A DNA stretch of 64,000 bases from an uncultured Puniceicoccaceae bacterium (GCA_964430955.1 CAYSHY010000004.1:9971-73970), one strand, 5' to 3'; positions 2,878 to 60,468 are shown, counted from the stretch's first letter. Program-made: numbers and translations. The notes: generated by a model from the letters alone, not told the origin.

Positions 2878-5800
2878 TTATTGTGGTATGACAAACCATC
2901 CTGCATCGGGAGACCAGAAGCCACGGTAACCCGGAGTGTAGGCGAAGTAGTACCAACCTTCAGGCAGACTTGTAGAGCCGAAGCAGTAAAGCCAGTTGTA
3001 GGTGTCGCCGTTCGTGTAGATCCAGGCTTCCAGTTGTCCGTCCCATATGAATGGCGAATCACCGCCCTCTGGCAGGTATTGCCATCCGTGAGCTGGCGAC
3101 CAGATCCACGGTTTCGTACCGCTGTAGTAGTAACCATACCAGGCCGAGTAGCTCCAGCCCCCGCCCACATCGAGCTCCTCGAGCAGGCCTTGCGGCAGCT
3201 GCCGGGTGATGATGACCTGAATCTCCTGTGGGGATGAAAGTGGGGCGGACAGATTATAGATTGTAGCGCTGCTCTCGATAAACGTATGCGGGGAGGTGAC
3301 CGGGAACGGTTGAAGCGCCTTCATTAGAATACCTCCACCTTGCGCCCGGGTTGGTGTAGCGGGCGTTACATTGAATAGTCCCGGCGCGTTGCTTACTGCC
3401 TGGATGTAAGGAGGGGAATCTACACTGCCAGCCAATGGAACCGAGGCAGTGGGCGAGTCCGGATGCAGGTAAACACGGCGCTTGAGCGGGTAAACGGCCG
3501 ACGGCGGAACGAAGGGCTCCGCTTCCGTGCTGTCCGGGTTCAACGGAGCGCCGTCATCGGCGTCGTTCACACCGTCACCATCAGTATCAGCGAGCCGTGG
3601 GTCGCTCTGCGGGACTGTGGCGCTGCCCGTGATTTCAAGACCATCTGGAATGCCGTCTCCATCGGTGTCGGCGAGGTCTGGCCGTGTGCCCAGCTCGAAC
3701 TCTTCAAGGTTCGTCAGTTGGTCGCCGTCAAGGTCCGCGTGCGCGTCGTCGATAGAAGGATTCAGCCCGTGAGCGATTTCAAAACTGTCAGGCATGCCGT
3801 CCTGGTCCACGTCGTAGAGACTGGGATCCACAGCGAGAATCCAGTCCGCCTGCATTTCGATCATTCCCGCAGGAGCGGTGGCATTTTCATCAATCTCTGC
3901 AGTGATGAAAAGTGCGTCCCACTGAGTAATGTCGCCTACGGTAAAGCTCCACTGCAATGAGGCCTCCGCACCGGGCGCCAGGGTCGGAAGGTTCTTGACT
4001 GGCTCGCTTATTGTGACCGCGCCCTCAGGAATTACCGACACTCGCACAGGCAGGACAGGAAGCGAGTTGCCGCCAGCATTGAAGGCTGTAACCTGCAGAG
4101 TGAAAGACTCTCCAGCAGCGGAGATTACTGCTGACCCCGTTGACGTGGAAGTGACGGCGCCCGGTTCAAGCACGATTGCTTGTCCCGGTGTTTCTGAAGC
4201 AGTGGCGGCCTGCGTGGAGAACGCGTCGATTGCCGAGCTGGTTTTCGTAACGGCCGTCCTGAACTCTTTCAAAGCCCGGAGGACGCTGGCGCGCCGCGTG
4301 ATGTAGGCCGCTGATGTAGGAGACTCGAATACGCCGCCAAGCACGCCTTCAAACAAGGCGCCCAGTTCTTCTCCCAGTGTAATGGCAGTCGCCATTTGCT
4401 CGATTCTCGCGGTGCGGAGCCAATCCAACAAGGAAGCAAGATCGGGGTTTGTGTACGATGCAGCGCCCGCAGCGGCTTCAAAACGCCGGCCGGCATTTCT
4501 CCAGGCTGCGTGGGCATTCACGAGTGATCCGGATTCGGTGGGATGAACCGAGGCGTTAAGCACTGTCCCAATGTTGTTTGCGGAGAGACCTTGCTCAATC
4601 GATTGAAGCGCGGCGAGAACAGTCGCCGCAGAAGGCGGTGAGGCCGATAGGGAGGCGGCTCGGATCGGGACGCTTCCCTTGGTTGAGGCTTCAGCACGCG
4701 CGGGAAGCGCACTGCCGGGGCTCTGAAGGGCTGTTGTATCTGTGGGAAATCCGAACGCTGCCCTGTTCAGACGCTCGAGGTCCATTGGGATGCCGACATA
4801 GATGGCGCTTGCGCTGGCGACAATGGCTTCTACATGAGCTGCAAATTTGAGGATCTTTGAGGCTGCTTCGGCGGCCTTTGCCTGCTTTAGCCCGACGCCC
4901 AACAGGGAAAAGTAAGATTCTGCGATGCTAGAAGCCTCAGCCGTGGTTTGGCCTATCAGCACTGCCGTCGAATACCGTTCCATGGAAACGAGGAAAGAGA
5001 GGTAGAACTGGTTGAAGTCTGCCCGGTCGCGAAGAAACTGCGGGTCGTCATAGGTATTCCACCCCTTCATGGTGTCGAGAGAGTCCTGGAGGACATCTGC
5101 AGTTACCGCAGTGAAGGAGAAAGGCGCCCCATCATAGAACACCGGGTGGAATTGTTTGGTGATACCCTTTATTATCTCCTGAATGCCCAGGCTCGTTGCA
5201 TGTACCCCCCTGCGAGCCCGGCTGGCCTCGGCGTCCTTGAGCCCGTTTGCGATGCTGCGGCCCGCCAGCACAAAGTAATAGGTAAAAGAAGCGGCCAGTT
5301 CCGGCTTCATGCCAGCCTTCACCAGTCCGGCTTCCAAGTATGGCTTAACTGATTTCAGGATCGTGGATGCGCCGCTCATCCTCTCCGCATTGCGCACCAA
5401 CGCCCAATCCGCCTGAGAGGCGGCTTCGATGAGCACCTCGCCCGGTTGCAGGACGCCAAAGTCCGGAGACTCGCGCGAGAGCGTCACCCGTTTCTTCGCC
5501 TCTCTAAGCGCATCGCTCTCCTTCTTGGCTATCTCCCCGTAAATCTCGGCCAGCAAGTTCCCGATAGACGTGAGCATCTCCTTGATGAAGATGTCGGCGA
5601 ACTCGGCGCCCATCAGGACGCTCCGTTCACTGAGGATGGCTCTCCGGAGCGCTTCACGCGTAACCGGCGATAGCTCAAGGTTATCAAGGTGATTGATCAC
5701 CTGCGTTTCAATCGGCGCCCAATAATTGGGGCCCTTGCCGGAAAGGTTCTCCGCCAGGTTTCGTTTGATTGCCGGTTCATCTGCAGGTTGAAGATTGAGC

Positions 5801-7731
5801 ACGAGATCCGCCGTGGGAACGCGTACGTTTGGCTGGATCAGCGTGAGAAAGTTGAGAGGTTGGGTGCGGGATGTATCGACGTTATGCTCGTCATCCATCA
5901 CCCATTCGTCTGTCTCGGCCGCCGAGACCTCTATCGTGTAGTATGCGTGGCGTAAGACGCCGGTATTCTGCAGCTTTACGGCTTGCAAAAGTTGTGTGGA
6001 GAACTGCCCTGCGTCGGTTTCGGTCATCACGATTCGCTGCACTTGAGCGCCGAGCTGGCTGCGCACATACTTGTGGTAGTCTATGGCGAGCTCACCGGGT
6101 TTCTGAGACCGAATCCAGCCGGACGGCTGAGAGTAGATGGTGATCACAGCGCGGTGTACCGCATGTTCACGGTCTGTCAGTGTTGGAGCGGCTGAACGGA
6201 CGACGCCGGAAAGCGAGCCTTCGATTCGTTCCGCATCCGGCGGCAGAACACGGCAGATCGCGCTCGAACCGTCAAAGAACTGCATCAGGCAGACGAGTTC
6301 GCCTCCATCAGTAAGGCCTTCCGGGTAGTAGAGCACGCTGGCGAGGGTCTTTTCCTGCCCGTCGAGTTGCAGAGCCTGTCCTCTCCACAGGAGGACATGG
6401 AACTGACCGGTGAGATCCTGGTAGATCACAGACGAAACAGGGAACTGCCCATCGCCGATGCCCGGCCCCTGAAGCTTTACTGAACTTACATTAGCCCCGT
6501 AGGGGTTCGCGGAGAAATAGTACTCGGTTTCGGTTATGCGAATGTTTGTCCCCGGCAGGAAATCACCAATCGTGTAGAGCAGTTGTAATCCGTGGGTCAG
6601 ATCTGCCTTGAAACGACCAGCGCCGGAGCGGCCGAACCCTTGGTAGTTAGCCCTGAAATAGGCTGTTCCTCCCCGAATGACCTCGTCGCCTGCAAATACC
6701 GAGGGAAGGGATAGTTTTACGGCGCCCTCGGGCGTGGTGATCTCGGTGTTGTAGGGAACCAGAAGCTTTGGCCCCAGGAAGGAAACCAGATAGAGCGCGT
6801 TAGCGTAGGTTGGCGGGGCTCCATACGCCAAGACCAACGCCACACCACTCTCATCGACATCGAGCAGAGAGTAATTCTGCGGACCATATGGAAGCCCGGG
6901 TAGCACGGAATCCGGCCCGAGGACGAGTTCCGAATTGCTTCCCAGGAAACGGTAGACCGAGTCCATTTGCCTGCTTCCGGGGCCCGGGGAGTCTGCCGTG
7001 TAGTAGCCGATGCCCACATCCCGGGCCATCTGGTAACCGCGGAACTTGGGCAGATTGGGATCGCCTGCGTGTGTGGTGAGGTGAACCGACCCTCCTAGCC
7101 CCCAATAGAGGGCCCCGCCGTAGTTGCTTACTTCGGCCACAAACGCATAAACCCCGCTATTGGATATAGAGGTTGAGTGAAAGCGGTCGAAAGACAGCTT
7201 AACGTCATTGACCGGCCCGGGGACGGTCTCGGGCAGGCCGGGCGGAGGATCGTTGAATTGGCTTAGGAGTCGTTTTATCGTGCCGCCGCCGCCGTACCAG
7301 ATGGATTCGCCATAGGGAACGCCGTCGACATTGGTTTGCGAGGAGACAGGCTGAAGGAAGAAGACGAACAGGCTTTGCCCTGAATCGTTGAAAGCCAGGC
7401 TGTGGGGATAGCCGTTGTTAAACCAGCGATTGGCGAACTTTAACCTGCTGTCTTCCGGGGATAATTCGCCGCTCAACGCAATCTCCTGGAGTCCGCCCGC
7501 TCCAGCGGCGTACACCCCTGATTTGGGTTGTTGGCCGTTGAGGCCCATCTCAAAGATGGCAGCGCCCTTCTGATTGGGAACCGGTATCCACACAGCATTG
7601 ATATCGGTCGTATCCTCCCGGTGACTGGGCCACCAGCTTGCCGCAAGCACCTCAATGATCGGCGGCTGCTGGGCGTCTGCCCGGAGCGCTATTAGACCCA
7701 GCACAGTTAGGAACACCCGAGTTAGACGCAT
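2878..7731 (-). CDS. Giant secreted protein (~1617 aa): signal peptide, beta-rich N-terminal region, long helical middle region, CARDB/Ig-like domain, thrombospondin type 3 Ca-binding repeats, Trp-rich C-terminal tail
   Basis: Uninterrupted 1623-codon ORF. The ATG at 7731 follows AGGAGA by 8 nt and is preferred over the GTG at 7749. Signal peptide MRLTRVFLTVLGLIALRADAQQ. TSP3-type repeats DVDQDGMPD / DLDGDQLTN / DTDGDGIPD / DTDGDGVNDADDGAPLNPD at nt ~3535-3815. Ig/CARDB-like block FTLQVTAFNAGGNSLPVLPVRVSV. Aromatic tail at nt 2881-3165. Confidence 0.85.
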   Translation of the reverse strand: MRLTRVFLTVLGLIALRADAQQPPIIEVLAASWWPSHREDTTDINAVWIPVPNQKGAAIFEMGLNGQQPKSGVYAAGAGGLQEIALSGELSPEDSRLKFANRWFNNGYPHSLAFNDSGQSLFVFFLQPVSSQTNVDGVPYGESIWYGGGGTIKRLLSQFNDPPPGLPETVPGPVNDVKLSFDRFHSTSISNSGVYAFVAEVSNYGGALYWGLGGSVHLTTHAGDPNLPKFRGYQMARDVGIGYYTADSPGPGSRQMDSVYRFLGSNSELVLGPDSVLPGLPYGPQNYSLLDVDESGVALVLAYGAPPTYANALYLVSFLGPKLLVPYNTEITTPEGAVKLSLPSVFAGDEVIRGGTAYFRANYQGFGRSGAGRFKADLTHGLQLLYTIGDFLPGTNIRITETEYYFSANPYGANVSSVKLQGPGIGDGQFPVSSVIYQDLTGQFHVLLWRGQALQLDGQEKTLASVLYYPEGLTDGGELVCLMQFFDGSSAICRVLPPDAERIEGSLSGVVRSAAPTLTDREHAVHRAVITIYSQPSGWIRSQKPGELAIDYHKYVRSQLGAQVQRIVMTETDAGQFSTQLLQAVKLQNTGVLRHAYYTIEVSAAETDEWVMDDEHNVDTSRTQPLNFLTLIQPNVRVPTADLVLNLQPADEPAIKRNLAENLSGKGPNYWAPIETQVINHLDNLELSPVTREALRRAILSERSVLMGAEFADIFIKEMLTSIGNLLAEIYGEIAKKESDALREAKKRVTLSRESPDFGVLQPGEVLIEAASQADWALVRNAERMSGASTILKSVKPYLEAGLVKAGMKPELAASFTYYFVLAGRSIANGLKDAEASRARRGVHATSLGIQEIIKGITKQFHPVFYDGAPFSFTAVTADVLQDSLDTMKGWNTYDDPQFLRDRADFNQFYLSFLVSMERYSTAVLIGQTTAEASSIAESYFSLLGVGLKQAKAAEAASKILKFAAHVEAIVASASAIYVGIPMDLERLNRAAFGFPTDTTALQSPGSALPARAEASTKGSVPIRAASLSASPPSAATVLAALQSIEQGLSANNIGTVLNASVHPTESGSLVNAHAAWRNAGRRFEAAAGAASYTNPDLASLLDWLRTARIEQMATAITLGEELGALFEGVLGGVFESPTSAAYITRRASVLRALKEFRTAVTKTSSAIDAFSTQAATASETPGQAIVLEPGAVTSTSTGSAVISAAGESFTLQVTAFNAGGNSLPVLPVRVSVIPEGAVTISEPVKNLPTLAPGAEASLQWSFTVGDITQWDALFITAEIDENATAPAGMIEMQADWILAVDPSLYDVDQDGMPDSFEIAHGLNPSIDDAHADLDGDQLTNLEEFELGTRPDLADTDGDGIPDGLEITGSATVPQSDPRLADTDGDGVNDADDGAPLNPDSTEAEPFVPPSAVYPLKRRVYLHPDSPTASVPLAGSVDSPPYIQAVSNAPGLFNVTPATPTRAQGGGILMKALQPFPVTSPHTFIESSATIYNLSAPLSSPQEIQVIITRQLPQGLLEELDVGGGWSYSAWYGYYYSGTKPWIWSPAHGWQYLPEGGDSPFIWDGQLEAWIYTNGDTYNWLYCFGSTSLPEGWYYFAYTPGYRGFWSPDAGWFVIPQ

Positions 7732-7857
7732 AGTTATGTCTCCTGCCACCTATTATGGCGAAGACGATACTAGGGTGTCAATAAATGCCTCTGATGGAGC
7801 CAATTCTAAAAGATTATGGCGTGCCGCATAACGGGGCCACAGGTCCATAAGGTTCCC

Positions 7858-22387: not shown

Positions 22388-22388
22388 C

Positions 22389-25635: not shown

Positions 25636-28600
25636 TCAACCTGCGATATACGCCCATGCTCCGGTGGGGGTGACATGTGTTTCGGGCAAATAAAGCCAGT
25701 TGAGAAAGCTCCACGAGAAAATCCAGCCTGAGGCGTCGGGAACGATGATCCATCCGGCCAGCATGCCGGTGTCGACGTTTCCCGCTTCGTCCATGGTCGC
25801 GCCGGCCCATGTTCCTGCACCCGAGTTGTTGGCGGGAACCAGGGCTCCATCGTTCCGCAAAAAAGCCCAGGCGCCTGCACGAGTGTCCGCCGGGCCGGCT
25901 TCATTTACGAAGATCCATCCACCAGCGTTCACAAAAAGCCATGGGTAGAAGGCGTCATTAACCCATCCCAGCCATCCCCGGGTGTCTATCCATCGAGCTT
26001 CCTCCACGGTGAATGGGAGAAGGATGCCTTTCCCCGCCGGTGACTGGTAGCTGACGTCAATACTGTCAGCGCCATGCGTGAGCCGCGACCAGAGGAAAAA
26101 GTGCGCGTCCTCGCCCACCGCATCACGCCAGTGCTCTTCCACCATCTCCTTGAACACGGGGAGGTAGTTGGCGCTCTTTCGGTTAATATAGTGGTTATAC
26201 GGTGTCTCGTAATTGTCGAAACGACTGTATTCACCCTCGTAGTCGTAAGACCATTCGCTACCACATGGGGCTTCCTTACGTCCCGTCATGAGGTTTGCAA
26301 AGTACTCCAGGATGATGGCCAGACGCGGGATGGACTGACCATCGAAAGTGGCTTCGTAAAGGTCGTCATAGCCCAAGTTGTGCGCCAGCTCCGCCGAATC
26401 TCCCCAAGAGACCACACTATACTGTGAGTGCCACGTGTCCCGACACGTTTCAACGATCTCGCCGCTTGTTTGGCTCAGTTCGTCCAGTTTCCTTAGCTGG
26501 TAATCAAGTCCCACCTGGAAGATCGATTGCTCGTCGCTCCAGGCGCCGTAGCTCATTACTGCCAAGGCTGCTGAAACTGCCCAGTTATTTCGCTCGTCGA
26601 GCGCACTCGAAGCCTCCTGATACAGGATCTCCATGAAGTAATTGAAGGCCGCCATGTCTGTAGGATGCCAGTTGGAGGCGCCCCCATTGTGGTAACGCAT
26701 GATGTCGGCCGCGCTGATCCAGACAGGCAGGGCCCACGCCGCCTCGAGATGGACCTGCGCCGGGTTGGATGACTCAATCTTGCGGAACGTGCGGCCCCAG
26801 TCGTTCAGGATGGCGAGCGCCTTGTCCCGGTGTGCGGGGTTGCCGGTTACCACCCATTGCAGTGCATGACTTCGTGCGGCGGTTCCGTCATTGCGGAAAT
26901 CGTCCTCGCTGGGCCCTGTGTGGGCGGGCACTACTTCTATCGTCTCCCATGGCGTGTGCGAATAGCTCAGCGACGCATACTCCGTTTGAAGCATCGCATC
27001 CCAACCTGCGCGTGCGATTGAAGAGATCTCGTTACGCACTACGGCTCGCATCCTGTCCAGTTGCTCCTGCGTGTTGATTACCGATGGATGGGGCAGTTCC
27101 GGCTCAGTGCGGTAGTCAAACACCATCACGCTGGCGGAACTGCGTGCAATCGCCGCCCCCTGCGCGTTCCGGATGGTGATGGTGAAAGTGACGTTGCTGC
27201 GATGTCCGCTGTTGATCACTGCGTCAAAAGCGCCCGCCATTGCTGCAGGTCCTGATGTGCCTCCATTGGGAAAGCTCACATCGCCATTGCTGGTTATTTC
27301 ATACGTGCTTCCCGTGGGCAGTGGCGCGTTCACTGTATAAGCCAGGCCGAAAGGAACACCGGCGGCTGCTCCCGGCGTTTCCGGCGTCAGCTCGACAAGC
27401 GAGCGTCCCCCGATCATGCGTACGCCCCCCTTTACATCAATGTCATCAATGTAGAATCCAGTGTCGTCACCATCGGTATGGATTCCCAGATAGCGAGGAT
27501 CGCCGGGCATTGTCCCTTCCAGCACCCGCACAAACATACCGTCGCCAGTGAGAAGCCACACCTCGAACTTTCCGGGCTCAAGATCCTCCTGTCCGTAGTA
27601 ATCAATCAGGGGCTCGCTGCTGTCATTGGCGACAATGTACAGATGGTTTAATTTCCCAGTGGGGTAATCAGCGATGCCTTGTTCGGTCACGTTGCCCCGC
27701 GCTGAATGAAGCACCTTGCCGTTTAGGAGCTCGACCGCGGCGACGGGGCCACTGTTCAGATTCGTTTGATCAAACAGTCCGATCTTTACGCTTCCTGATC
27801 CATCTCCGGGGCGTTCGATGAACATCAGCGATAAGGTGCTTACTGCATCTACAGTCCCGGAACCAATGTTCTTTGTAAGACTGATCTCATCTCCAGTGAT
27901 GTGGAGAGATTTGTTGGGACTGCCAAAATCATCGACTGAGTCCTGGGTAACGATAGCGCCGCCACTACTGGAATCCCATTTCGCTGCACTTCCCTTTGAG
28001 TAGCCTTCGAAGTCCTCCTCAAAATGAGTCTCGCTCAACCCGATGCCCCGGCTAACGACGATGTTGTCGGCATAGACATCCATATCGGTGTCGGACCAGC
28101 TGCGGAATCCTGCATACTGTGGCGGACGGGCGATGCTGGCCTCGAGCACCGGCCAGATAGAGCCGCCGCGCGGTCCTATCCATACCTCGTAGCTGCGTGG
28201 CGCAAGATTCTCCAGACCTTCATAACGCACAAGTTCCTGGTCCGTGTCGTTTACGACGAGATATAGCCGATAGTCCAGTCCGAGCTCGTATCGCGAGGGG
28301 CCCAAATGTCCCAGGTGAGACATCCCTCCAATGCGATCGTGAACGATCTCTCCGTTGAGGAGAAGAATGTTTGCGGAGGACGTTACGCTGGTAAGGTCTG
28401 GACCGTTCCCAAATCCAATGGCCAGACCGAGTTTAGAGTAACCCTCGGTGAGATCAATAAAGTCGACGGCCAGGGTTGAGACATGCCCTTTGGTGATCGA
28501 GCGCACGTCCTGCATCATGCGAAGCGACTTTTGTTGCATGGAGAGGGCGCGATTGGGATTGCCCAGCAGTGGTATGGTTGCCTGGTCAACCACCAGGACG

Positions 28601-28767
28601 CCGGCGCCATCACTCCATGTTGCTATTTCACCGACATCGTAAGATTCTAAGTCATCTTCAAAGGCTTGGCTTAAAACGGAAAGCGGCCAAAACAGCAGAA
28701 TGCAGTAGAAAAGTGTGAGCGATTGGGCAAAATGCATCATGAATGATTGTCGCGTATCAGAAGGCAT
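25636..28767 (-). CDS. Secreted polysaccharide-lyase-like protein: two LamG-like repeats, Ig-like domain, alginate-lyase/heparinase-type alpha-toroid, Trp-rich C-terminal tail
   Basis: Signal peptide MMHFAQSLTLFYCILLFWPLSVLSQA. An internally duplicated ~190-aa jelly-roll starts FEDDLESYDVG.. and FEEDFEGYSKG... Toroid-like block: AARSHALQWVVTGNPAHRDKALAILNDW...HLEAAWALPVWISAADIM...RNNWAVSAALAVMSYG. Aromatic tail at nt 25639-25995. Confidence 0.6.
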   Translation of the reverse strand: MPSDTRQSFMMHFAQSLTLFYCILLFWPLSVLSQAFEDDLESYDVGEIATWSDGAGVLVVDQATIPLLGNPNRALSMQQKSLRMMQDVRSITKGHVSTLAVDFIDLTEGYSKLGLAIGFGNGPDLTSVTSSANILLLNGEIVHDRIGGMSHLGHLGPSRYELGLDYRLYLVVNDTDQELVRYEGLENLAPRSYEVWIGPRGGSIWPVLEASIARPPQYAGFRSWSDTDMDVYADNIVVSRGIGLSETHFEEDFEGYSKGSAAKWDSSSGGAIVTQDSVDDFGSPNKSLHITGDEISLTKNIGSGTVDAVSTLSLMFIERPGDGSGSVKIGLFDQTNLNSGPVAAVELLNGKVLHSARGNVTEQGIADYPTGKLNHLYIVANDSSEPLIDYYGQEDLEPGKFEVWLLTGDGMFVRVLEGTMPGDPRYLGIHTDGDDTGFYIDDIDVKGGVRMIGGRSLVELTPETPGAAAGVPFGLAYTVNAPLPTGSTYEITSNGDVSFPNGGTSGPAAMAGAFDAVINSGHRSNVTFTITIRNAQGAAIARSSASVMVFDYRTEPELPHPSVINTQEQLDRMRAVVRNEISSIARAGWDAMLQTEYASLSYSHTPWETIEVVPAHTGPSEDDFRNDGTAARSHALQWVVTGNPAHRDKALAILNDWGRTFRKIESSNPAQVHLEAAWALPVWISAADIMRYHNGGASNWHPTDMAAFNYFMEILYQEASSALDERNNWAVSAALAVMSYGAWSDEQSIFQVGLDYQLRKLDELSQTSGEIVETCRDTWHSQYSVVSWGDSAELAHNLGYDDLYEATFDGQSIPRLAIILEYFANLMTGRKEAPCGSEWSYDYEGEYSRFDNYETPYNHYINRKSANYLPVFKEMVEEHWRDAVGEDAHFFLWSRLTHGADSIDVSYQSPAGKGILLPFTVEEARWIDTRGWLGWVNDAFYPWLFVNAGGWIFVNEAGPADTRAGAWAFLRNDGALVPANNSGAGTWAGATMDEAGNVDTGMLAGWIIVPDASGWIFSWSFLNWLYLPETHVTPTGAWAYIAG

Positions 28768-32760: not shown

Positions 32761-34662
32761 ATGTTGGCTACTAAAACTCAAAGGCTTGGAAGACGTGCGG
32801 GGATGCTGATTGCTCTCCTCCTGACTGGCGTCGCAGACGTTCAAGCCGTAGATCGCGCAGTCCCAATTGGCGACTCCCTGGTGGAGATGGAGCCCTATGC
32901 TCACAATGGGATGATCAACGCTCGTCTGGGAACGGGCGGTGCGCGCGGAAGCGCGGCGCTGGTGCACCCGCGGGTCTTATTGACTGCAGCGCATGTTGTC
33001 TTCGATGAAGACACGCTTACGTGGGTTACCGACGTCACCTTCGACCTGAAACGCAACGTCAATTACCAGAACAGCGGGCGGCGCACTGTGTATATCGTGA
33101 CAGGGTCAAAGGTCTGGACCGAATACTCCAAGGTGGTGAAGACATCGGGTTCCAACGGGGGAATCTGGCCGTTCAATCTTGATTTTGCCGCCGGTTATCG
33201 CGCCGGTGACTCTAGCTTTCCGTCCACCTACGCCGCCTATGTGGTAAAGGAGGATGAACTGGTTTCGCCGCTCCGCGATGAAGTTCAAAAGCTCATTGTC
33301 GGTTATCCGCTGGATAGCGATAAAGTACCCACCGCGAACCAAGGCCTCATGCACCACCTGGGGCCGAAGAACCTCAAATTTTTCGACCATCTGGAGAGCT
33401 ATGGGGGAAAAGTGGATTCGGAGGGATTTCCTTATGCCGTCTATCGGGTGGATGACGTGGAGGTGCATGGGGGCAACAGTGGAGGCCCGATCTATGTGCG
33501 GGAGGAGGCTGACGGCCAATGGCTGCAAGCGGGCGTGATCACCGGCGGTAGCGCCTCGGGCCAACCTTATACAATTTTGCGCGGCATCGACGAGGAGGCG
33601 CATAAGCTGATCGTGCAAGCGATCAAAGCCAGCGGTCTAGAAACCATTTACCGGCCCGAAGCGGTATCCGTAAAAGAGGAACCGGGCGCCATTAATATTA
33701 CTTGGGAGGATAACTCACCCTCGGATGATGGGTGGCAGATTTTTCGCCACGATGGTCTGGGTTGGGCGCTGTTGGCCGAGATTGCGGGCGCCTCCACAGT
33801 TCCAGCGACCGGCGAGATGCTGACGTTTGTGGACGACCGGCTTAATCCAGGGCAAGTGTACCGCTACAAGGTGCGGGCATTGGCGACAGATGGGGGCGTC
33901 TCACCGTGGTCAACAGAGCAGGTGGCTGACGCGATTGGAGCAAATGTGAGCCTTGGCGATGCCTTGGGAGCGCCGCGCCTTACTTGGCTGACAGGTGGCG
34001 ACGCGGCATGGGTAGCCGACGGAAACGGCGCGCGCAGCGGGTTCATCCGCAGCAGTTCACGCTCCTGGATCGAAACCCGCGTGATGGGGCCAGGGCAATT
34101 GACTTTCGACTGGAGCGCCTCCACTGAGACACCTGATCCGCCACGCATCTACGACAATCTGATGTTTGAGATAGATGGCGAGATGGTGCGTCAGATTTAC
34201 GGCGTCAATTCTGCGCGTGGGCTGTCCTTCCAGGTAGGCAAGGGCGTTCATGTCTTCCGTTGGACATACTCCAAGGATGCCTATTCAACGGGCGGGGAAG
34301 ATTTGGGACGTCTGGCGAACGTAAGATTCAGCAGCAACGATCCGGATCAGAAGATTGATGGCGCCTACGAGGTGAAGGACGGTTGGCTCTACGCCCACTG
34401 GTTTGGTTATTTCTTCGCCAGTGGCGGCGGTGACTGGATCTGGCACGAGGCTTTCGGGGCTGGTGGCGGCTGGGTGTATGTCACGGGAACGCGCGACAAC
34501 CTCTGGCTTCATCCCACGAACTCAAATGAACTTGGCTGGTTGTATACAAACCCGGACGCCTTCCCGTATCTCTGGAGCAGCGCAACCGGAAACTGGATCG
34601 CCTGGGCGGGCATGGAGAACTGGTTCTATGACATGGTGGAGGCCAGGTTTTTCCAGCTCTAA
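32761..34662 (+). CDS. Secreted trypsin-like (S1 family) serine protease with FN3, jelly-roll-like module and Trp-rich C-terminal tail
   Basis: Leader RRAGMLIALLLTGVADVQA. Catalytic His context LLTAAHVVF. Ser context HGGNSGGPIY. FN3-like INITWEDNSPSDDGWQIFRH...YRYKVRAL. Aromatic tail at nt 34378-34659. Confidence 0.75.
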   Translation: MLATKTQRLGRRAGMLIALLLTGVADVQAVDRAVPIGDSLVEMEPYAHNGMINARLGTGGARGSAALVHPRVLLTAAHVVFDEDTLTWVTDVTFDLKRNVNYQNSGRRTVYIVTGSKVWTEYSKVVKTSGSNGGIWPFNLDFAAGYRAGDSSFPSTYAAYVVKEDELVSPLRDEVQKLIVGYPLDSDKVPTANQGLMHHLGPKNLKFFDHLESYGGKVDSEGFPYAVYRVDDVEVHGGNSGGPIYVREEADGQWLQAGVITGGSASGQPYTILRGIDEEAHKLIVQAIKASGLETIYRPEAVSVKEEPGAINITWEDNSPSDDGWQIFRHDGLGWALLAEIAGASTVPATGEMLTFVDDRLNPGQVYRYKVRALATDGGVSPWSTEQVADAIGANVSLGDALGAPRLTWLTGGDAAWVADGNGARSGFIRSSSRSWIETRVMGPGQLTFDWSASTETPDPPRIYDNLMFEIDGEMVRQIYGVNSARGLSFQVGKGVHVFRWTYSKDAYSTGGEDLGRLANVRFSSNDPDQKIDGAYEVKDGWLYAHWFGYFFASGGGDWIWHEAFGAGGGWVYVTGTRDNLWLHPTNSNELGWLYTNPDAFPYLWSSATGNWIAWAGMENWFYDMVEARFFQL

Positions 34663-44979: not shown

Positions 44980-46824
44980 CTACTCCTTCAGCTTCTCAAA
45001 CTCCTTCCATTCTCCGGTCTGCGGGTTGTAGTACAGTGGGAACTGCTCTGCCGAAAACCAGACTGTCCCGTAGATCGAATGCGAAGCCCAGTAAGGATCC
45101 GAGTCCAGAAAGAAGTAAAATAAGCCATACAGAGGGTGCTCCACGTAGGGAGAGTTCGCCATCCTGAACCTGCCCATCCATCCCGATTGATACCAATGAT
45201 CCGGCAGAACCATCAATTCTCCGAAGTAGGGGTGCTGGATTGTCTCATGAGGTTGTTCAAGCGGATTGAATCCATGAATCGCGGTGTAGCCGTCTATCAG
45301 GTCCTCTGGTAGTTGTTCGGGCTGTTCGTACCATGAGTAACTTTCTACGTCGATGTAGCCGCGTTGACCGGGAGGGGGGATGCCAAACGTTTCCCAGGCG
45401 ATGACCGTCAGCACCAAGGGGTGGAAGCTCTTATAGAAGCCGGTGCTCAAGTAGTTGAACTCGTCCTTGCTGGAAGGATGGTCCGGATTGTTCAGGTAAT
45501 CTTCGGGGGCGATGTAGGAAATGGAGCTTGGAAAGCTGTGGAATTGCTCCTTTAGCGCCATCTGAAGGGACCTGAACTCATGGTGGTTTGGCCACGCAAA
45601 GCCCTTCGAAAGATGATGATTCGTCTGGAGTGCGAAAACAGTGACAGCCGACAGAGAAAGGACTGGAAGGAATATGTGGGCGCTCTTTGGGGCGAGCCGT
45701 TGAATAATCCATTCACTCCCCAGCACGGCTAGGGTAACGCCCAGCGCGTAAGGCGCCGCCAAGGTGCGAAAGAAGGCTGAAGGCGTGGCAATCAGGTTTG
45801 GCGCAAAGGTGAGCCCGTAGGTAAACAGGCATAAGACCGCCAGCTGAGCTGTCGCCGCCCAGGATAAGCGGAAACGGACTCGTATTGACCAGAGGCCGCA
45901 AACGCAGAGGCCTCCGGAGGCGATCGCCCAGATCCATGTCCAGAGGGGATTAGGCTGCAGCGCACCCCAGAACCCGATCACCCGGGGCATCAAGACAGAG
46001 GCTGCAAAGCGGCCGATCTCAGGTATGTTGAGAGAGACTTTCGCGCGATCGTAGGCGGAGTCACCCTCAAAGAAATGGTTGCCCAGCCCTTTGTAGATCG
46101 TGAAGTAAACGCTGCAAACGAGGATCGTGAGGATTAGCCCTGCCCAGAGCTCGGGGAGTCGAAGTCGTTCGCCACGTTCTGTCACCGCGAGGATGAATAA
46201 GAGGACGGGAAAGAAAAGGCCCGCGGGTTGATAGATGCACAAGGCCGCAAGCAGCAAGAGACTACAGCTTGTGAGCCGCACTGGTTGCATCAGTTCATCC
46301 CGGTTGCCGGCCCGCCAGAACCGATCTGCCGCCATCACCATGAGAATCGGGGCCAGCACTACAGGGGCAAAGACCGCCCAGCCGACATAGATCGCCGTGG
46401 CGGGCGTAAGAACCGTCAAGAGGCTGATGAGCGCCGCAAGGCCGGGGCGCTGGCTGTGATTTCGGAGCAACCGGAACAGGGCATAAGCAAACACCGCCAG
46501 TAATGACAGGCCCGCCAGGCGCAGGTAGGCCAGATCATGGATCTGATCTGTTCCCGCGTAAGCAAGCTTGATCATGATGCCCCATAATGGACGGCCATGA
46601 GCGGAGAGCACATTGTGCAACCAGGGCATCGGATTGTCCTGGGACTGATAGATGTGCCAGTAATCATCAAAGTGAGCGTAGACCGTCGTCAGCGCCGGCC
46701 AATAGACGCCCATCAGCAAGACCGCTCCGCATAAGCCGGCGATCCGGTAACGCCAAGCGATCGAGACAGCCCCTGCTGTCTCGCCTGAAGCACGGCATTC
46801 CTGGGATGAGGAGCTCGCGGCCAT
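44980..46824 (-). CDS. Polytopic membrane protein, GT-C-like glycosyltransferase candidate, with soluble Trp/Tyr-rich C-terminal domain
   Basis: About 11-13 hydrophobic helices. An acidic DD motif sits in the first loop (YAHFDDYWHIY), as in GT-C/ArnT/PMT-like enzymes. The C-terminal ~230 aa are soluble, and the last ~65 aa (nt 44983-45186) align with the tails of the PQQ dehydrogenase paralogs. Confidence 0.5.
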   Translation of the reverse strand: MAASSSSQECRASGETAGAVSIAWRYRIAGLCGAVLLMGVYWPALTTVYAHFDDYWHIYQSQDNPMPWLHNVLSAHGRPLWGIMIKLAYAGTDQIHDLAYLRLAGLSLLAVFAYALFRLLRNHSQRPGLAALISLLTVLTPATAIYVGWAVFAPVVLAPILMVMAADRFWRAGNRDELMQPVRLTSCSLLLLAALCIYQPAGLFFPVLLFILAVTERGERLRLPELWAGLILTILVCSVYFTIYKGLGNHFFEGDSAYDRAKVSLNIPEIGRFAASVLMPRVIGFWGALQPNPLWTWIWAIASGGLCVCGLWSIRVRFRLSWAATAQLAVLCLFTYGLTFAPNLIATPSAFFRTLAAPYALGVTLAVLGSEWIIQRLAPKSAHIFLPVLSLSAVTVFALQTNHHLSKGFAWPNHHEFRSLQMALKEQFHSFPSSISYIAPEDYLNNPDHPSSKDEFNYLSTGFYKSFHPLVLTVIAWETFGIPPPGQRGYIDVESYSWYEQPEQLPEDLIDGYTAIHGFNPLEQPHETIQHPYFGELMVLPDHWYQSGWMGRFRMANSPYVEHPLYGLFYFFLDSDPYWASHSIYGTVWFSAEQFPLYYNPQTGEWKEFEKLKE

Positions 46825-53843: not shown

Positions 53844-53916
53844 TCGTGTGCTCTCTAGATATCGACCCGCCGCAACAGCACTTAAACGAAGAGCGAGGTG
53901 ATGCGCCCGGAATGGA

Positions 53917-54966
53917 TCACTCCCACCAGAATAGATACCAGTATCCCCAGTTCCAGAGAATGTCCTTCTGCCAAAGGACAAACGGATCCTTCCCTTCCGT
54001 CTCATTCAGTATCAGCGCCTTTCCCAGGGACATGGCCAGCTCCCGGTTTCCCTGTTGGAGGTGAAGCCAGATCCGCCCAAGTTCTACGGCGCCTCGTCCC
54101 GTTACATTCAGGAAACTGCGGCTCCAATCTACAGCAGCATCGATTTCTTCAGGGCTAATTTCGCTCAAGCCTGACGGCAACGAGTCCAGGGAAGCCGTGT
54201 CTGGAGGGCTGATGCATTGGAAGGCGACGGCATTGCCTTTTGGCACCTGGAAAACCGGTTTAAAGAATTCTCTCAGCCGGTACATGTACACCTGAACCAA
54301 GGCATCCGTACACCAGAGATAGTCCTGATTTATAAGCATTCCCCCGGGCTGGATCTGAGGGAAGAAAGCTCTGGCCGTAGACTTGGCGATCGTGAAGTTC
54401 TTCCACACATCATTGATGAGCAGCGAGATTGGCCCTCCATTCCACGTGGCGTTCTCCAGGTCTTCACTACAGGCCACCAGCAAGTCGGCATTCTCCTGTG
54501 TCTGTTGCACGAACGCATCGAGGAAGTTGTCGCCTTCCTGGTAACGGCCTGCCAGCGGAGTGTTGCGGACCCAATCTTCAAAGCAATCTGTCCACGTGAA
54601 GCGATCGAAAGCGTAGACAAGTTTCTTTCCAACAGGGGCAGTTGGATTACGGCGAATACCCTTTGAAGCAGCGTTTGAAAATGATCCCAACCAGCATCCA
54701 AGGTCAACGATCACGCCCTTTGAAAGGTCGACTTGAGATGACAGCCACTCCACATAAGTCTGTTCCTCAATTACGGTTGCCCCAAGATATCTGGGACGTT
54801 CGCCATTCATCAGCGCCTGGAAGCCGGCGTGATCATATTCCACCATTTGGTAGATTAAGTCTGTTGGCGTGAGTTTCGACAAGCTCGTGCTGTCGAATTC
54901 CAAAGTTTCCAAAAAAGACTTGAAACCTCCGAGGTCAGCGGCTTGTCTGTCCCGCTCATGACGCAA
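53917..54966 (-). CDS. Putative SAM-dependent methyltransferase-fold protein
   Basis: Rossmann-like motif VIVDLGCWLGSFS. Later ISLLINDVW and IQPGGMLINQDY. The ORF-track start at 54966 is TTG and the first ATG is at 54846. Confidence 0.45.
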   Translation of the reverse strand: MRHERDRQAADLGGFKSFLETLEFDSTSLSKLTPTDLIYQMVEYDHAGFQALMNGERPRYLGATVIEEQTYVEWLSSQVDLSKGVIVDLGCWLGSFSNAASKGIRRNPTAPVGKKLVYAFDRFTWTDCFEDWVRNTPLAGRYQEGDNFLDAFVQQTQENADLLVACSEDLENATWNGGPISLLINDVWKNFTIAKSTARAFFPQIQPGGMLINQDYLWCTDALVQVYMYRLREFFKPVFQVPKGNAVAFQCISPPDTASLDSLPSGLSEISPEEIDAAVDWSRSFLNVTGRGAVELGRIWLHLQQGNRELAMSLGKALILNETEGKDPFVLWQKDILWNWGYWYLFWWE

Positions 54967-56888: not shown

Positions 56889-56918
56889 GAAGCGCTCCTG
56901 GTTTCCCGGGAGCGCTTC
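56889..56918. terminator. Bidirectional intrinsic terminator between convergent genes
   Basis: Stem GAAGCGCTCC (56889-56898) / GGAGCGCTTC (56909-56918). The minus-strand reading is followed by TCTTTTGA and the plus-strand reading by GTTCTTG. Confidence 0.65.
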
Positions 56919-56942
56919 GTTCTTGAAATAGTTCAGCCGTGA

Positions 56943-58577
56943 CTACCTTGGGAAATAGGTCCAGGGGAAGCTGGACTCGCTTGTGTGGAACCAACTGTCG
57001 GTGTTGGTGCTGTAGAGCCACATTCCCTGGGCGTTACCGCTGATCGAGAACAGCCAACCCATGCGCTCCTGGTGGAACCAGGGGAAGGCGCTGTCGTCAA
57101 CATAGCCCATCCATGTTTCGCGCTGGCCGGGTTCGCCGGGGAAGGGGTTTTCCGCACTCGGGGGCATAAGCGTTTCCAAGCGGTATACGCGGCCATCGCT
57201 CTTTGCCATGATGTAGATTTCCCCATCGAGATCCTGACCTAAACGCAGGTCTGCTCGGTCGCGATTCACGTATTTCTTGACCATGTCCATGACAGTTGTG
57301 GACTTGCCCTGCTCATCCTCCAGAGCCAGCCAAGTAACGGTCTGTTGCTGGTTTTGCTCAACACTGTCAGCGTCGATGTACATCAACTTGCCGCTCACGA
57401 TCTCGCCGAAGACATACTTGCCGTAGAGCTCGGGGGTCTTGTTGCCGCGGTAAACGAAGCCGCCTACGATCGACGCCCAGGCGTCGGTAGGGATGCCGCC
57501 ATTCGGATGGTTGGGGAACTGCGAACGCTTGTGGTCAAACTGTGCAACAGGGTAGGTGTAGCCCAGCGTGTCGTCATTTGCCGGCAGTGGGTAAACATGC
57601 GTGCCGGTGTCGTAGCCCATATTGCGGTTGTAGAACCAGGTTCCTTCGCGGTCTGGCCAGCCGTAGTTGCGGCCGGGCTCAACAAGGTTGACCTCCTCGA
57701 TGTTGATTTCACCGATATCGCCAAGATACATGTTGCCGTTCAACCGGTCCCACGAAATACGATGCGGGTTACGGAAGCCAAGGGCCCAAATTTCGGGACG
57801 CGCTTCCGGGTCGTTTACAAACGGATTGTCTGAGGGAATTCCGTATTTGCCATTCTCGGAGTTGTTACCCAGCGGATCGATGCGCATGACTGTGCCGTAC
57901 AGACTGTCCTTGCGGCCCGTGTTTCCTGGCGACTCGTAGTACATTGATCCGGTGTCGCCCAAGGTTAGGTAGAGCATGCCGTAGTCGGGGTCGCCAGGTT
58001 GGGCTGTCGGGTTGAAGCCGATATCCTGCATGCCGTGCCGGGTTTGATGGCAATTTACGCGCAAGAGTTCGCGGAAGGTGCCTGAGAAAACGTCGGCAGA
58101 TGGATCGGTCACCGTCCACTCCATCCATACGGCCTGCATCCCGTAGGTTACGTTAATCGGGGGGCTAAAGTCCGCCGTCCCGCTGCCGGGTTCTTCGGAG
58201 TGGGCAGTATAGAACTTGCCGTTCGTGGCGAACTCCGGGTGGAAAGCCATCGCAGAAAGACCGTTGGCAAGGCCGGTGGAGCGCAGCTTGTTCCCCACAT
58301 GCGTCTTCAGGTCCAAATAGGTGGATACCTTACCATCCTTGATGAGGTAAATGTAGCCATAAAGGTCTGTCACAAAATAGCGTCCCGTGCCGTCAGGTGA
58401 CTCGGTCAGGTTGAGGACTTTTGTGCGAGGCGACGAGCCTGCCGATGGAATAGTGGCGATGTAACGGGCCTTTACAGTGATGTCCGCCGGCTGCGGTACT
58501 GGCGTCGGGTTCTTTAGCTGCGCATTGGCTGTGAAGCAGGCCAACACTGGCAGCGTAGCAAACAGAACTTTTTTCAT
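56943..58577 (-). CDS. Secreted PQQ-dependent sugar (glucose/sorbosone) dehydrogenase-like beta-propeller with Trp-rich C-terminal tail, paralog 1
   Basis: Signal peptide MKKVLFATLPVLACFTANAQ. FHPEFATNGKFYTAHSE, HGMQDIGFNP, LYLTLGDTG, GFRNPHRISWD, GDIGEINIEEVNLVEPGRNYGWPDREG. Tail at nt 56946-57119. Confidence 0.8.
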   Translation of the reverse strand: MKKVLFATLPVLACFTANAQLKNPTPVPQPADITVKARYIATIPSAGSSPRTKVLNLTESPDGTGRYFVTDLYGYIYLIKDGKVSTYLDLKTHVGNKLRSTGLANGLSAMAFHPEFATNGKFYTAHSEEPGSGTADFSPPINVTYGMQAVWMEWTVTDPSADVFSGTFRELLRVNCHQTRHGMQDIGFNPTAQPGDPDYGMLYLTLGDTGSMYYESPGNTGRKDSLYGTVMRIDPLGNNSENGKYGIPSDNPFVNDPEARPEIWALGFRNPHRISWDRLNGNMYLGDIGEINIEEVNLVEPGRNYGWPDREGTWFYNRNMGYDTGTHVYPLPANDDTLGYTYPVAQFDHKRSQFPNHPNGGIPTDAWASIVGGFVYRGNKTPELYGKYVFGEIVSGKLMYIDADSVEQNQQQTVTWLALEDEQGKSTTVMDMVKKYVNRDRADLRLGQDLDGEIYIMAKSDGRVYRLETLMPPSAENPFPGEPGQRETWMGYVDDSAFPWFHQERMGWLFSISGNAQGMWLYSTNTDSWFHTSESSFPWTYFPR

Positions 58578-58794
58578 TGGGGAATATAGGGTTGTTCGCT
58601 GTGGGAGCGAAGGGGGGATGCTTTGCAACCAGTTGAGCGCGGTCAGGCACAAGGAAGCGAAGCTTATCACCTGCGAAAAGTAACCTAATGAAGGCTGCCT
58701 ACAAGCAGCAAATGAGAAGAGAGAAGAGGGGGTTCACGGCAAGAAGAGAATGAGCACGGTCTTGGCGCCGATGAAGCCAGCAGGAACTGGCGAC

Positions 58795-58828
58795 AAAAAA
58801 GAGCCCTCTGCACGGGCAGAAGGCTCTT
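58795..58828 (-). terminator. Rho-independent terminator of the upstream dehydrogenase paralog
   Basis: The minus strand reads AGAGCCTTCTGC-CCGT-GCAGAGGGCTCT, a 12-bp stem with one G-U pair, followed by TTTTT. It begins 27 nt after the stop at 58855. Confidence 0.8.
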
Positions 58829-58854
58829 GGTAAATCTTGATTTGCAGAAGCCGC

Positions 58855-60468
58855 TTAGCGGGCAATGTAGATCCAGGGGTAGGCGTCCTGGGAGCTCCAC
58901 ATCCAGCTATCCCGATGCTGGTAAAGGAACCACATGCCGTCTGCATCACCCTGCATCATGAAGAGCCAGCCAAGCTGTTGATGCTCTACCCATGGATAGC
59001 TGGTATCGTCCAGCTCGCCCATCCAGGTATCTTTCAATCCCGGCTCGCCCTCGAAGGGGTTCTCTGGAGGTGGAGGCGTCAGGGATTCAAAGCGGTACAC
59101 TGCACCATCGATCTTGGTTAGCAGGTAAATGTTGCCCTTGAGGTCCTGGCTGAAGCGCAGATCCGCACGGTTGCTGTTCTTGTTGCGCTTTACAAGGTCG
59201 AGAGCGGTGAAGCTCTGATTGTTGTCCAGCTTCGCCTTGAACTCGTAAACTGGAACCTGGTTCCCCAGTTGGACCGCGTCGGCCTCAAAGTACTTCATAC
59301 GGCCGCTGGCGATGTCGCCCAAGACGAACTTGCCCTTAAGCTCGGGAAGCTCATTGCCACGGTAAACGCCGCCCAATGCGATGGCGTTGACGCCGTTCTT
59401 ATCCTCCTGGTGGTCGTATTGCGCTACTGGATAGGTGAAGCCGAAGGACTCGTCATTATCTGGAAGCTCGTACAGGTAGAAGCTGTTGGCGCCGCTGTTG
59501 CGATCAAACAACCAGGTGCCTTCGCGGTCTGGCCAACCGTAGTTATGACCGGGAAGGATAAGGTTCACTTCCTCGATGTTCATTTCCCCGATATCGCCCA
59601 GGTACATGTCTCCGGTGGCTGGGTCCCAGTTCATGCGGTGCGGGTTGCGGAATCCCATTGCCCATATCTCCTTGCGTGCTTCGGGATCGTTAGCGAAGGG
59701 GTTGTCGGCAGGAATTCCATATTTTCCGTTGGGTGAGTTGTTGCCCAGCGGGTCAATACGCATGATCGTGCCCAGCAGGCTACCTTTGTGGCCGAGATTT
59801 CCCGGTCGCCCGTCCCTCATGGATGCGCCATCACCGAGGGTCATGTACAAAATTCCATAGTCCGGATCGCCAGACTTTGCGGTGGGGTTGAAGGCAAGCT
59901 CCTGCACCCCGTGCAGGTTTCCGGGAACATTTACGCGTAGGAGCTCGCGGCGCGTACCGGTGAAAGTGTTCGCAGAGGGATCATCTGCAGTCCACTCCGT
60001 CCAGACCCCCTGCAGGGTGAAGGTCGCCACATTTGGTGGAGTAAAATCAGGTGTTCCGGATCCGGGAGCTTCGGCATGGCCCGTGTAGAATTTACCGTTG
60101 GTGGCAAAATCGGGGTGGAATGCAAACGCAGACAGCCCCGTGCCCATCCCGGGAGCATCGATGAACTTGTTGCCGATCTGCTGCTTTACATCGATATAAA
60201 CCGAATAATCGCCGTCCTCGATCAGGTAGATCTTGCCGCGCAGGTCCAGGACAAACAGACGCCCAGAGCCATCAGGCGCCTCACGAAGCATGTTTATGCC
60301 CTTGGCGAGAGCGCCAACGGCCGGAAGTCTGACAATTTCGGTAGCCTTAACTCGTACGTCAGACGGTAATACAGAAGGGGCCGGGTTCTGCAATTGTGCG
60401 CTGACAGGGGCAACGCACGCGCAGAGAAGCGCCGGAATGAGGTAGTATTTTGGGGACATTCGAAGCAT
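58855..60468 (-). CDS. Secreted PQQ-dependent sugar dehydrogenase-like beta-propeller with Trp-rich C-terminal tail, paralog 2
   Basis: Leader MLRMSPKYYLIPALLCACVAPVSAQ (ATG 60468 or 60459). Collinear with paralog 1: FHPDFATNGKFYTGHAE, HGVQELAFNP, LYMTLGDGA, GFRNPHRMNWD, GDIGEMNIEEVNLILPGHNYGWPDREG. Tail at nt 58858-59031. Confidence 0.8.
   Translation of the reverse strand: MLRMSPKYYLIPALLCACVAPVSAQLQNPAPSVLPSDVRVKATEIVRLPAVGALAKGINMLREAPDGSGRLFVLDLRGKIYLIEDGDYSVYIDVKQQIGNKFIDAPGMGTGLSAFAFHPDFATNGKFYTGHAEAPGSGTPDFTPPNVATFTLQGVWTEWTADDPSANTFTGTRRELLRVNVPGNLHGVQELAFNPTAKSGDPDYGILYMTLGDGASMRDGRPGNLGHKGSLLGTIMRIDPLGNNSPNGKYGIPADNPFANDPEARKEIWAMGFRNPHRMNWDPATGDMYLGDIGEMNIEEVNLILPGHNYGWPDREGTWLFDRNSGANSFYLYELPDNDESFGFTYPVAQYDHQEDKNGVNAIALGGVYRGNELPELKGKFVLGDIASGRMKYFEADAVQLGNQVPVYEFKAKLDNNQSFTALDLVKRNKNSNRADLRFSQDLKGNIYLLTKIDGAVYRFESLTPPPPENPFEGEPGLKDTWMGELDDTSYPWVEHQQLGWLFMMQGDADGMWFLYQHRDSWMWSSQDAYPWIYIAR

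Follow-up and report, generated by a model that had tools for sequence, protein, structure and literature searches.

Several bacterial systems are known in which unrelated envelope proteins end in one and the same kind of element, and the closest of these are the measure for a Trp/Tyr-rich module found at the C-termini of six proteins encoded in a 64,000-nucleotide stretch of DNA (the window) from an uncultured Puniceicoccaceae bacterium (GCA_964430955.1 CAYSHY010000004.1:9971-73970). The choline-binding repeats of Firmicutes (CW_binding_1, PF01473; LytA, CbpA and the CROPs of clostridial toxins) are aromatic beta-hairpin units of ~18-20 residues with a GW..Y-type pattern, which lie mostly at the C-termini of unrelated secreted proteins and are known to retain them on a surface polymer or glycan, as is supposed here for the module. 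The C-terminal domain (CTD) of the type IX secretion system (T9SS) of Bacteroidota (Por_Secre_tail, PF18962/TIGR04183) is an all-beta domain of ~80-100 residues, borne C-terminally by diverse enzymes and adhesins in tens of copies per genome. Carbohydrate-binding modules (CBMs) and dockerins are small, non-catalytic and linker-joined, mostly terminal, variable in position, sometimes doubled, and shuffled among catalytic domains. Finally, the signals of the PEP-CTERM/exosortase, LPXTG/sortase, GlyGly-CTERM and MYXO-CTERM systems close many unrelated envelope proteins, and are described in bioRxiv 10.1101/2023.06.07.544157 as tripartite, the short motif being followed by a membrane helix and this in turn by a cluster of basic residues.

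The module resembles each of these systems in the respects just named and differs from each in others, as set out below. It is a domain family unannotated in current libraries, mobile and extracytoplasmic, and mostly but not always C-terminal; it is a new domain family, possibly with a new fold, in a familiar role. An earlier note on this DNA had taken the tails for a portable, unnamed and unusually dense element built of aromatic hairpins, and that part of its interpretation stands, while its further proposals of an invariably C-terminal position, a short sorting tag or a solenoid do not.

Homology of the six tails

The tails of the two glucose/sorbosone dehydrogenase family (GSDH) paralogs align with that of a giant secreted protein without a gap over 57 residues, and six Trp positions coincide. 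A six-sequence alignment of the window tails (A2) was compared exhaustively, by HMMER, with 1.84 billion cluster representatives, of which 825 matched at E ≤ 1e-3. Alignable columns persist as homologues are added: 149 of the best 150 of these 825 matches realign over a domain of ~100 columns, in which W, G, W, H, G, W, T, P and W hardly vary. An external profile hidden Markov model (HMM) was then made from 145 of these sequences, with the window's own proteins and one relative of the giant protein left out. Searched against 1273 six-frame segments of the window, it matched exactly the six carriers, with E-values from 3.7e-18 to 2.1e-5, and the first non-carrier match reached only E 0.19.

The six tails could in principle be merely compositional, that is, Trp/Tyr-rich ends alike by chance and without common ancestry. 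Leave-one-out profiles of the window copies alone are marginal, as this explanation would have it: the tails of the S1 protease and the GT-C-like protein do not rise above noise, and that of the lyase, at E 0.84, ranks under a chance match. Moreover, one of the best 150 matches, P0002, was rejected as an FG-GAP-like repeat-protein false positive of the six-sequence profile. The external profile, however, finds all six copies and nothing else, the near-invariant columns include the non-aromatic G, H, T and P, the 57-residue alignment is gapless, and two AlphaFold models of the domain are confident. Chance resemblance is therefore left with a vanishingly small probability; the six tails are homologous, members of one real domain family, and a compositional artefact is excluded.

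A word-indexed homology search with the 72-residue tail of GSDH paralog 2 gave no candidates, and one with a 70-sequence domain alignment gave only 2 matches, the method being unsuited to a short, divergent domain; nor do the tail alignments hold a conserved stretch of 7-10 columns.

Translation of the window finds all six open reading frames (ORFs) and their tails where the earlier note had placed them. The carriers and their module copies are as follows (aa, amino acids):

2878..7749, minus strand: giant secreted protein, 1623 aa; ORF and translation, module carrier
2890..3180, minus strand: module of the giant protein (aa 1524-1620); external HMM E 6.7e-14, profile positions 4-78, envelope to aa 1620
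25636..28767, minus strand: alginate-lyase-like secreted protein, 1043 aa; Pfam Alginate_lyase E 2.2e-9, aa 622-817
25846..26010, minus strand: start of the module in the lyase, two first hairpins (WLGWV..YPWLF..GWIFV); HMM E 2.1e-5, positions 12-42
25639..25845, minus strand: divergent Trp-rich rest of the lyase tail (GWIIV, GWIFS, NWLYL, AWAYI); -0.5 bits against the family profile
32761..34662, plus strand: trypsin-like serine protease (S1) with fn3-like middle region, 633 aa; Pfam Trypsin E 4.4e-4, which is exactly the family cut-off
34357..34659, plus strand: complete module of the S1 protease (aa 533-633), hairpin 2 of which holds an inserted GAGG; HMM E 2.4e-16, positions 3-95
44980..46824, minus strand: polytopic GtrII/GT-C-like membrane protein, 614 aa; Pfam Glucos_trans_II E 1.9e-4, below cut-off
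44983..45219, minus strand: module of the GT-C-like protein, without the last hairpin; HMM E 6.9e-10, positions 6-77
56943..58670, minus strand: GSDH paralog 1; Pfam GSDH E 7.5e-31
56946..57149, minus strand: truncated module of GSDH paralog 1; HMM E 2.3e-15, positions 11-67 of 104, up to the stop codon
58855..60570, minus strand: GSDH paralog 2; Pfam GSDH E 6.3e-32
58858..59055, minus strand: truncated module of GSDH paralog 2, with the same truncation point as in paralog 1; HMM E 3.7e-18, positions 13-67

Of the six window copies, two are complete, three truncated and one degenerate for the most part. In the giant protein the domain appears to be present at full length, with divergent last hairpins. 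In the 119-residue lyase tail, the family match is recognisable over the first ~30 residues only, and the divergent rest is probably a degenerate continuation or a second copy of the module. The tail of the GT-C-like protein stops at profile position 77-78. Both GSDH tails, each preceded by a Pro-rich linker, end after hairpin 4, with about two-thirds of the domain left; GSDH paralog 1 stops after the YPWxY strand. The two GSDH genes (56943-60570, minus strand) are tandem paralogs with 58.5% identity in the catalytic part versus 44% in the tail; because their modules are cut at one point, the truncation is older than the paralog duplication and has been retained.

A further Trp-rich tail is encoded by ORF 53917-54966 (minus strand, 349 aa), which ends in ...FVLWQKDILWNWGYWYLFWWE and has 7 Trp in its last 60 aa; it gives no match to the module profile and was rejected as a family member. 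This ORF has only a weak match to Methyltransf_24, and its 3' end overlaps ORF 53019-54005, so that its frame or gene call is uncertain.

As the earlier note had it, five of the carriers start with a signal peptide and the sixth is polytopic. The N-termini of the five are signal-peptide-like and contain AxA-type sites, and these proteins show no further membrane segment; the signal-peptide and membrane-segment calls on the window carriers are heuristic, not SignalP predictions. In the giant protein the signal peptide starts at Met7, and the signal-peptide-like segment RVFLTVLGLIAL is followed by ADA. The S1 protease has a signal peptide by the same heuristic, the N-terminus of the lyase is signal-peptide-like, and in GSDH paralog 1 the signal peptide follows the internal Met32, with the segment MKKVLFATLPVLACFTANA. 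The database protein P0001 is identical to GSDH paralog 2. Trp makes up 5-11% of the last 100 residues of each carrier versus 1-3.5% of the remainder.

Across Pfam and NCBIfam, the giant protein gives only weak matches, to NPCBM_assoc, an MtsD/CglD-type Ca-repeat and NxxGxxAF. A sub-threshold NxxGxxAF 'choice-of-anchor' repeat lies at aa 117-170, and thrombospondin-type-3-like Ca-binding repeats (partial MtsD/CglD) at aa 1307-1401, immediately before the module.

In the GT-C-like protein, at least 9 segments are hydrophobic, the first loop contains the motif HFDDYW, and the C-terminal domain of ~215 residues is soluble and acidic (D+E 27 versus K+R 11). Its sole detectable ortholog, P0166 from Verrucomicrobiota bacterium JB022, is 40% identical and has kept the tail. 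The C-terminal domains of characterised GT-C enzymes are periplasmic; here the first-loop motif and the acidic C-terminal domain suggest that the same would hold for the window protein.

Anatomy and predicted fold

The unit is not the loose repeat tail that had been proposed but a discrete domain of ~95 residues, with about five Trp/Tyr-rich beta-hairpins of ~18 residues each and a profile of 104 positions. Its consensus reads GW..S.WFG.F.....PWIYH...GWLYv......LWLYd..lGWLWTs...YPYLY.....WLYY..g..nPRwFYdf.t..W. When the two halves of the domain were compared by hhalign, the middle part (PWIYH..GWLY..LWLYD..GW) aligned with the C-terminal part (YPYLY..WLYY..RWFYD..W) with a probability of 96% and an E-value of 1.9e-9, which the Trp-rich composition may flatter. 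The array of aromatic hairpins has thus arisen by internal duplication, and the hairpin repeats anticipated by the earlier note are borne out.

AlphaFold2 with the family alignment gave 11 beta-strands for the S1 tail (predicted local distance difference test, pLDDT, 92.3; predicted template modelling score, pTM, 0.82) and 11 short strands for a canonical copy (pLDDT 95.3, pTM 0.83). The fold is confidently predicted to be compact and all-beta. In both models the strands are 3-8 residues long, mostly 4-6, within ~95 aa, and contain polar His, Thr and Asp. Foldseek searches with the two models found no neighbour in the PDB at E<1 and none in BFVD.

These models also bear on the beta-hairpin solenoid, like that of choline-binding repeats, which had been expected. 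Choline-binding repeats form open-ended arrays, whereas the module has about five hairpins, a fixed length of ~95 aa and a compact shape (pTM 0.82-0.83), which speaks against a solenoid. Furthermore, the CW_binding_1 HMM matched neither the six carriers at E ≤ 1 nor 82 full-length family members at E ≤ 1e-3, nor, at E ≤ 10, the consensus or any of four domains, and Foldseek gave no match to any solved choline-binding structure (the LytA/CbpF-type superhelix). The hosts differ as well, being diderm Verrucomicrobiota here rather than Firmicutes.

Two other kinds of beta structure were considered and rejected. An outer-membrane beta-barrel or autotransporter beta-domain would span the membrane with at least 8 strands, each of about 10 residues, would measure at least ~150 aa and would occur C-terminally only; strands so short, a domain so small and the existence of N-terminal copies are not compatible with it. 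A curli-like amyloid repeat differs in composition, and the monomer fold of the module is confident.

The libraries were likewise negative on the module itself. Pfam-A and NCBIfam at E ≤ 1 place nothing on the tails of the six window carriers. No Pfam family covers the module at E ≤ 1e-3 although it is present in 82/82 full-length members, and the NCBIfam scan agrees. With the consensus and four domains at E ≤ 10, the only Pfam match was a weak one to eukaryotic OCRE (E 0.004, below cut-off), another Tyr-rich beta motif. There was no significant Pfam match on the module to CBM families, SLH, GW/SH3b, LysM, dockerin or cohesin, and PDB sequence searches found no match. The earlier note had recognised no named family, and Pfam-A, NCBIfam, PDB sequences, and PDB and BFVD folds all agree with it. 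No description of the domain was found in the literature, nor does the paper on Verruconatronum alginivorum (PMC13274419) refer to it.

Carriers, position and distribution of the family

At E ≤ 1e-3, the 82 full-length members contain 80 different Pfam families, the commonest of which, Flg_new_2, occurs in 7/82; the tail thus behaves, as had been claimed, as a portable module on unrelated extracytoplasmic proteins. Carrier families include subtilase, cyclophilin-type isomerase, GSDH, FGE-sulfatase/GldK-like, DUF1800, CAP, BNR and RCC1, and further carriers are adhesin-like proteins with cadherin, Ig, PKD and He_PIG domains, giant proteins with LTD and CotH domains, and thioredoxin-like proteins. 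The carriers are envelope or secreted proteins in general, with carbohydrate-active enzymes (CAZymes) a small minority; the signal-peptide heuristic on metagenomic carriers is to be read with the knowledge that many database entries are fragments with false starts. A GT39 protein (also GT-C) from a metagenome-assembled genome (MAG) of Syntrophobacteraceae, unrelated to the GT-C-like protein of the window, ends in the module too, so that integral GT-C membrane enzymes carry it in two phyla (the window protein and its JB022 ortholog, and the Syntrophobacteraceae GT39 protein). By NCBIfam, choice_anch_Q occurs in 3/82 members, myxosortase-dependent M36 in 2/82 and rhombotarget A in 2/82, families that usually end in a sorting signal.

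Two carriers stand out by their enzymatic parts. P0041 (1097 aa), with a C-terminal module, has a PEP-synthase/PPDK_N-like ATP-grasp region at aa 349-552, which is unexpected in a secreted protein. Locus L054 (Puniceicoccaceae MAG CAWVVV010000007.1) encodes, on the plus strand in frame 2, a 513-aa ORF for an Stf0-like sulfotransferase with an RSGSTY P-loop.

The range of carriers bears directly on whether the module forms a new CBM family and brings its enzymes to polysaccharides in the environment, algal glycans for instance. An aromatic-rich, all-beta domain of ~95 aa, joined by linkers to enzymes that include the alginate-lyase-like protein, would suit such a role, the host taxa are generally known as marine polysaccharide degraders, and variable position and duplication are typical of CBMs. 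Most carriers, however, are not CAZymes: they are cyclophilin, thioredoxin-like, GSDH, CAP and DUF1800 proteins, proteases, adhesin-like repeat proteins and GT-C enzymes. Since the module also has no similarity to any CBM in Pfam or the PDB, an environmental CBM is considered improbable.

Position was counted in two samples. Among 149 database matches, the module is C-terminal in 116 (at most 25 residues after it), N-terminal in 22, where it stands directly behind the signal peptide, and internal in 11; eight of the 149 carriers have two full copies. Among 129 genome copies with a downstream stop, 109 end at most 15 residues past the domain and 16 have more than 100 residues downstream. C-terminal placement thus holds for about 78-85% of carriers, and the end of the protein is often the last strand of the domain. 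The claim that the tail is always at the extreme C-terminus is correct for the six window copies and fails for the family at large. In one subfamily of eight loci (L003, L012, L016, L017, L032, L075, L108 and L114), the module is followed by ~110-120 residues, in which a segment that resembles an InlB-B repeat or Flg_new_2 (GGSV.G.G.Y..W..V.L.A....GY.F.GW.GD) is joined by a helix conserved at the C-terminus (L..LS..E....A..L..GKS).

A short sorting tag of the PEP-CTERM kind, as had been suggested, is contradicted by the tails, which have no PEP-like motif with membrane helix and basic tail. The carrier families do overlap with those of the tripartite signals (choice-of-anchor, M36, rhombotarget A), but the five secreted window carriers have no membrane-helix-like segment after residue 70, their tails end in beta-strand motifs, NCBIfam places no sorting-signal match on the module, and the module itself is a folded beta domain of ~95 residues.

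For the distribution of the family, a degenerate DNA pattern for WFG..PW.xH...GW was searched with one genome per species, which gave at least 118 loci. The HMM confirmed the module in 116 of them; L035 (Planctomycetaceae) and L117 (Nocardioides) have no HMM match and were rejected as chance matches to the pattern. Among the matches listed, ~95 belong to MAGs and single-cell genomes of Opitutia, Opitutales, Puniceicoccaceae or unclassified Verrucomicrobia, 3 to Verrucomicrobiales or Verrucomicrobiia, 4 to Victivallales, and 14 to Syntrophobacteraceae, 'Deltaproteobacteria' or Thermodesulfobacteriota MAGs. The domain is common in the marine Verrucomicrobia of class Opitutia. The presence of the module in a few Syntrophobacteraceae/'Deltaproteobacteria' MAGs, remote from the Planctomycetes-Verrucomicrobia-Chlamydiae (PVC) phyla, suggests lateral spread of the module or of its ligand. 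In P0021 (MGC9197203.1, Syntrophobacteraceae MAG) and the Desulfobacterota-type loci among L001-L065, the module is abundant and highly canonical, and its position is strictly C-terminal.

One Opitutales MAG has at least 11 pattern matches, and as the pattern detects ~36% of family members (and 0/6 of the window copies), tens of copies per genome are likely. An extra copy occurs about once per 58 kb in the flanks of the listed loci; the 6 copies per 64 kb of the window are about five-fold denser, and the density that the earlier note had called unusual is confirmed. A recurrent neighbour gene was sought across the at least 118 loci, and the commonest neighbour family adjoins only 9 of the 118 listed. 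With no conserved neighbour, no candidate gene for a dedicated machinery is seen at the listed loci.

Within the window, the genes among the carriers are ordinary housekeeping ones (purD, aroA-type, ribBA, lysS, prfA, ruvB and an sdh/frd operon). Because the carriers are scattered among such genes, the window is a normal chromosomal region and not an island. The JB022 ortholog of the GT-C-like protein and the distribution of the family point to Verrucomicrobiota/Opitutia as its source. Adjoining the giant gene at 241-2814 (plus strand) is a gene for an fn3 and CHB_HEX_C_1/Fn3_assoc protein without the module; the same domains occur in P0005, an LTD+CotH giant with two modules from a Verrucomicrobiota MAG. 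Two ORFs have no Pfam match at E ≤ 0.01, one of 754 aa (13532-15796, minus strand) and one of 404 aa (34749-35963, minus strand), the latter with an N-terminus that is signal-peptide-like by eye.

Position, copy number and neighbours together bear on the principal rival to a binding role, in which the module is a C-terminal secretion or surface-attachment signal that follows the logic of the T9SS CTD and is served by a dedicated machinery of Opitutia and other PVC bacteria. On this view the domain would see its passenger across the outer membrane and would afterwards either be cut away or provide the attachment. About 78-84% of copies lie at the extreme C-terminus, often ending exactly at the last strand, and an all-beta domain of ~95 aa resembles a CTD. 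The enormous diversity of passengers (proteases, Ig/cadherin adhesin-like proteins, enzymes), the high copy number indicated by the at least 11 strict-pattern matches in one Opitutales MAG, and the passengers that fall in choice-of-anchor, myxosortase-dependent and rhombotarget families are all as such a signal would lead one to expect.

The T9SS CTD is, however, strictly C-terminal, whereas the module is also N-terminal (22/149), internal (11/149) and doubled (8/149), and it occurs on polytopic GT-C enzymes of the inner membrane, which cannot be outer-membrane cargo. Both GSDH paralogs keep truncated copies without the last three strands. The likeness to the T9SS CTD drawn in the earlier note finds no HMM match, nor is there HMM similarity to any other sorting domain or a fold match; no Pfam or NCBIfam family is found in more than 7 of the 82 carriers and none on the module. 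The phyla are different (Verrucomicrobiota, Lentisphaerota and Desulfobacterota-type MAGs here, Bacteroidota there), no recurrent neighbour gene adjoins the module among the matches listed, and no associated machinery has been identified for it. Taken together, a secretion signal appears unlikely, though it carries more weight than the CBM explanation. A more specific form is that the module would be the cargo-recognition and attachment domain of an undiscovered secretion or surface-display pathway, with a function like that of the T9SS CTD and an unrelated new fold, the N-terminal and GT-C copies being secondary co-options. Such a pathway would be peculiar to Opitutia and other PVC bacteria, with lateral sharing to some Desulfobacterota; this form is given the same low probability as the CBM.

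The same distributional data could fit a docking or oligomerisation module which, in the manner of dockerins, would assemble enzymes on an envelope scaffold or on each other. The domain is internally duplicated and, with exceptions, C-terminal, and many diverse carriers occur per genome; dockerins share these features of duplication, C-terminal bias and many carriers per genome. On the other side, no partner or scaffold family adjoins the carriers among the matches listed, and the module has no similarity to dockerin or cohesin. Protein-protein docking is accordingly rated a shade more doubtful than the CBM.

A candidate role in binding or retention

The reading preferred here, with a confidence that stops somewhat short of even, is that the module would be an unprocessed binding or retention module. 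As a non-catalytic unit that is not cleaved off, it would tether or target the fused enzyme or adhesin to a periplasmic or cell-surface ligand, which would probably be a glycan of the cell's own envelope. Retaining proteins or binding a polysaccharide, which the earlier note had also put forward, is still the best reading, and we infer all three of its parts (that the module binds, what it binds and that it stays uncleaved) from sequence.

Binding is preferred over a sorting tag because the module can be N-terminal, internal or doubled and because it is found on polytopic GT-C enzymes. Binding or retention is further favoured by the toleration of truncation, by the lack of a membrane helix in the tails and by the lack of a linked machinery gene. 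As the carriers are periplasmic or surface enzymes rather than CAZymes, a ligand of the cell's own envelope is suggested more than an environmental substrate.

Several observations weigh against a binding role. The C-terminal bias, with 109 of the 129 genome copies ending at most 15 residues past the domain, fits a sorting or secretion signal equally well, and the same is true of passengers so extremely diverse and of copies that number tens per genome. Families that usually end in a sorting signal are represented among the carriers (three choice_anch_Q, two M36 and two rhombotarget A). Given how few carriers are CAZymes, a classical substrate-targeting CBM role is not obvious. The Stf0-like sulfotransferase of L054, which has no signal peptide and a weak C-terminal module of 45 bits, is the only candidate cytoplasmic carrier seen. 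Finally, the conserved Trp residues may be just the hydrophobic core of the domain.

Unannotated domains are common. In the ocean, Opitutia play a major part in the degradation of sulfated algal polysaccharides, and to our knowledge the placing of their many exo-enzymes and adhesins in the envelope is poorly understood. With hundreds of different secreted fusions, tens of copies per genome and a confident fold that has no solved relative, the domain marks a shared, unstudied step at the envelope, whether proteins are there retained on a surface polymer, targeted to a glycan or recognised by an export pathway. With a model of the family, the annotation of many 'hypothetical' C-termini in PVC genomes would improve at once, and such a model would offer a simple handle for work on localisation and binding. 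Should the module prove to bind glycans, a new CBM-like family would begin with it; should it prove to act in sorting, a new system of secretion or attachment would be indicated.

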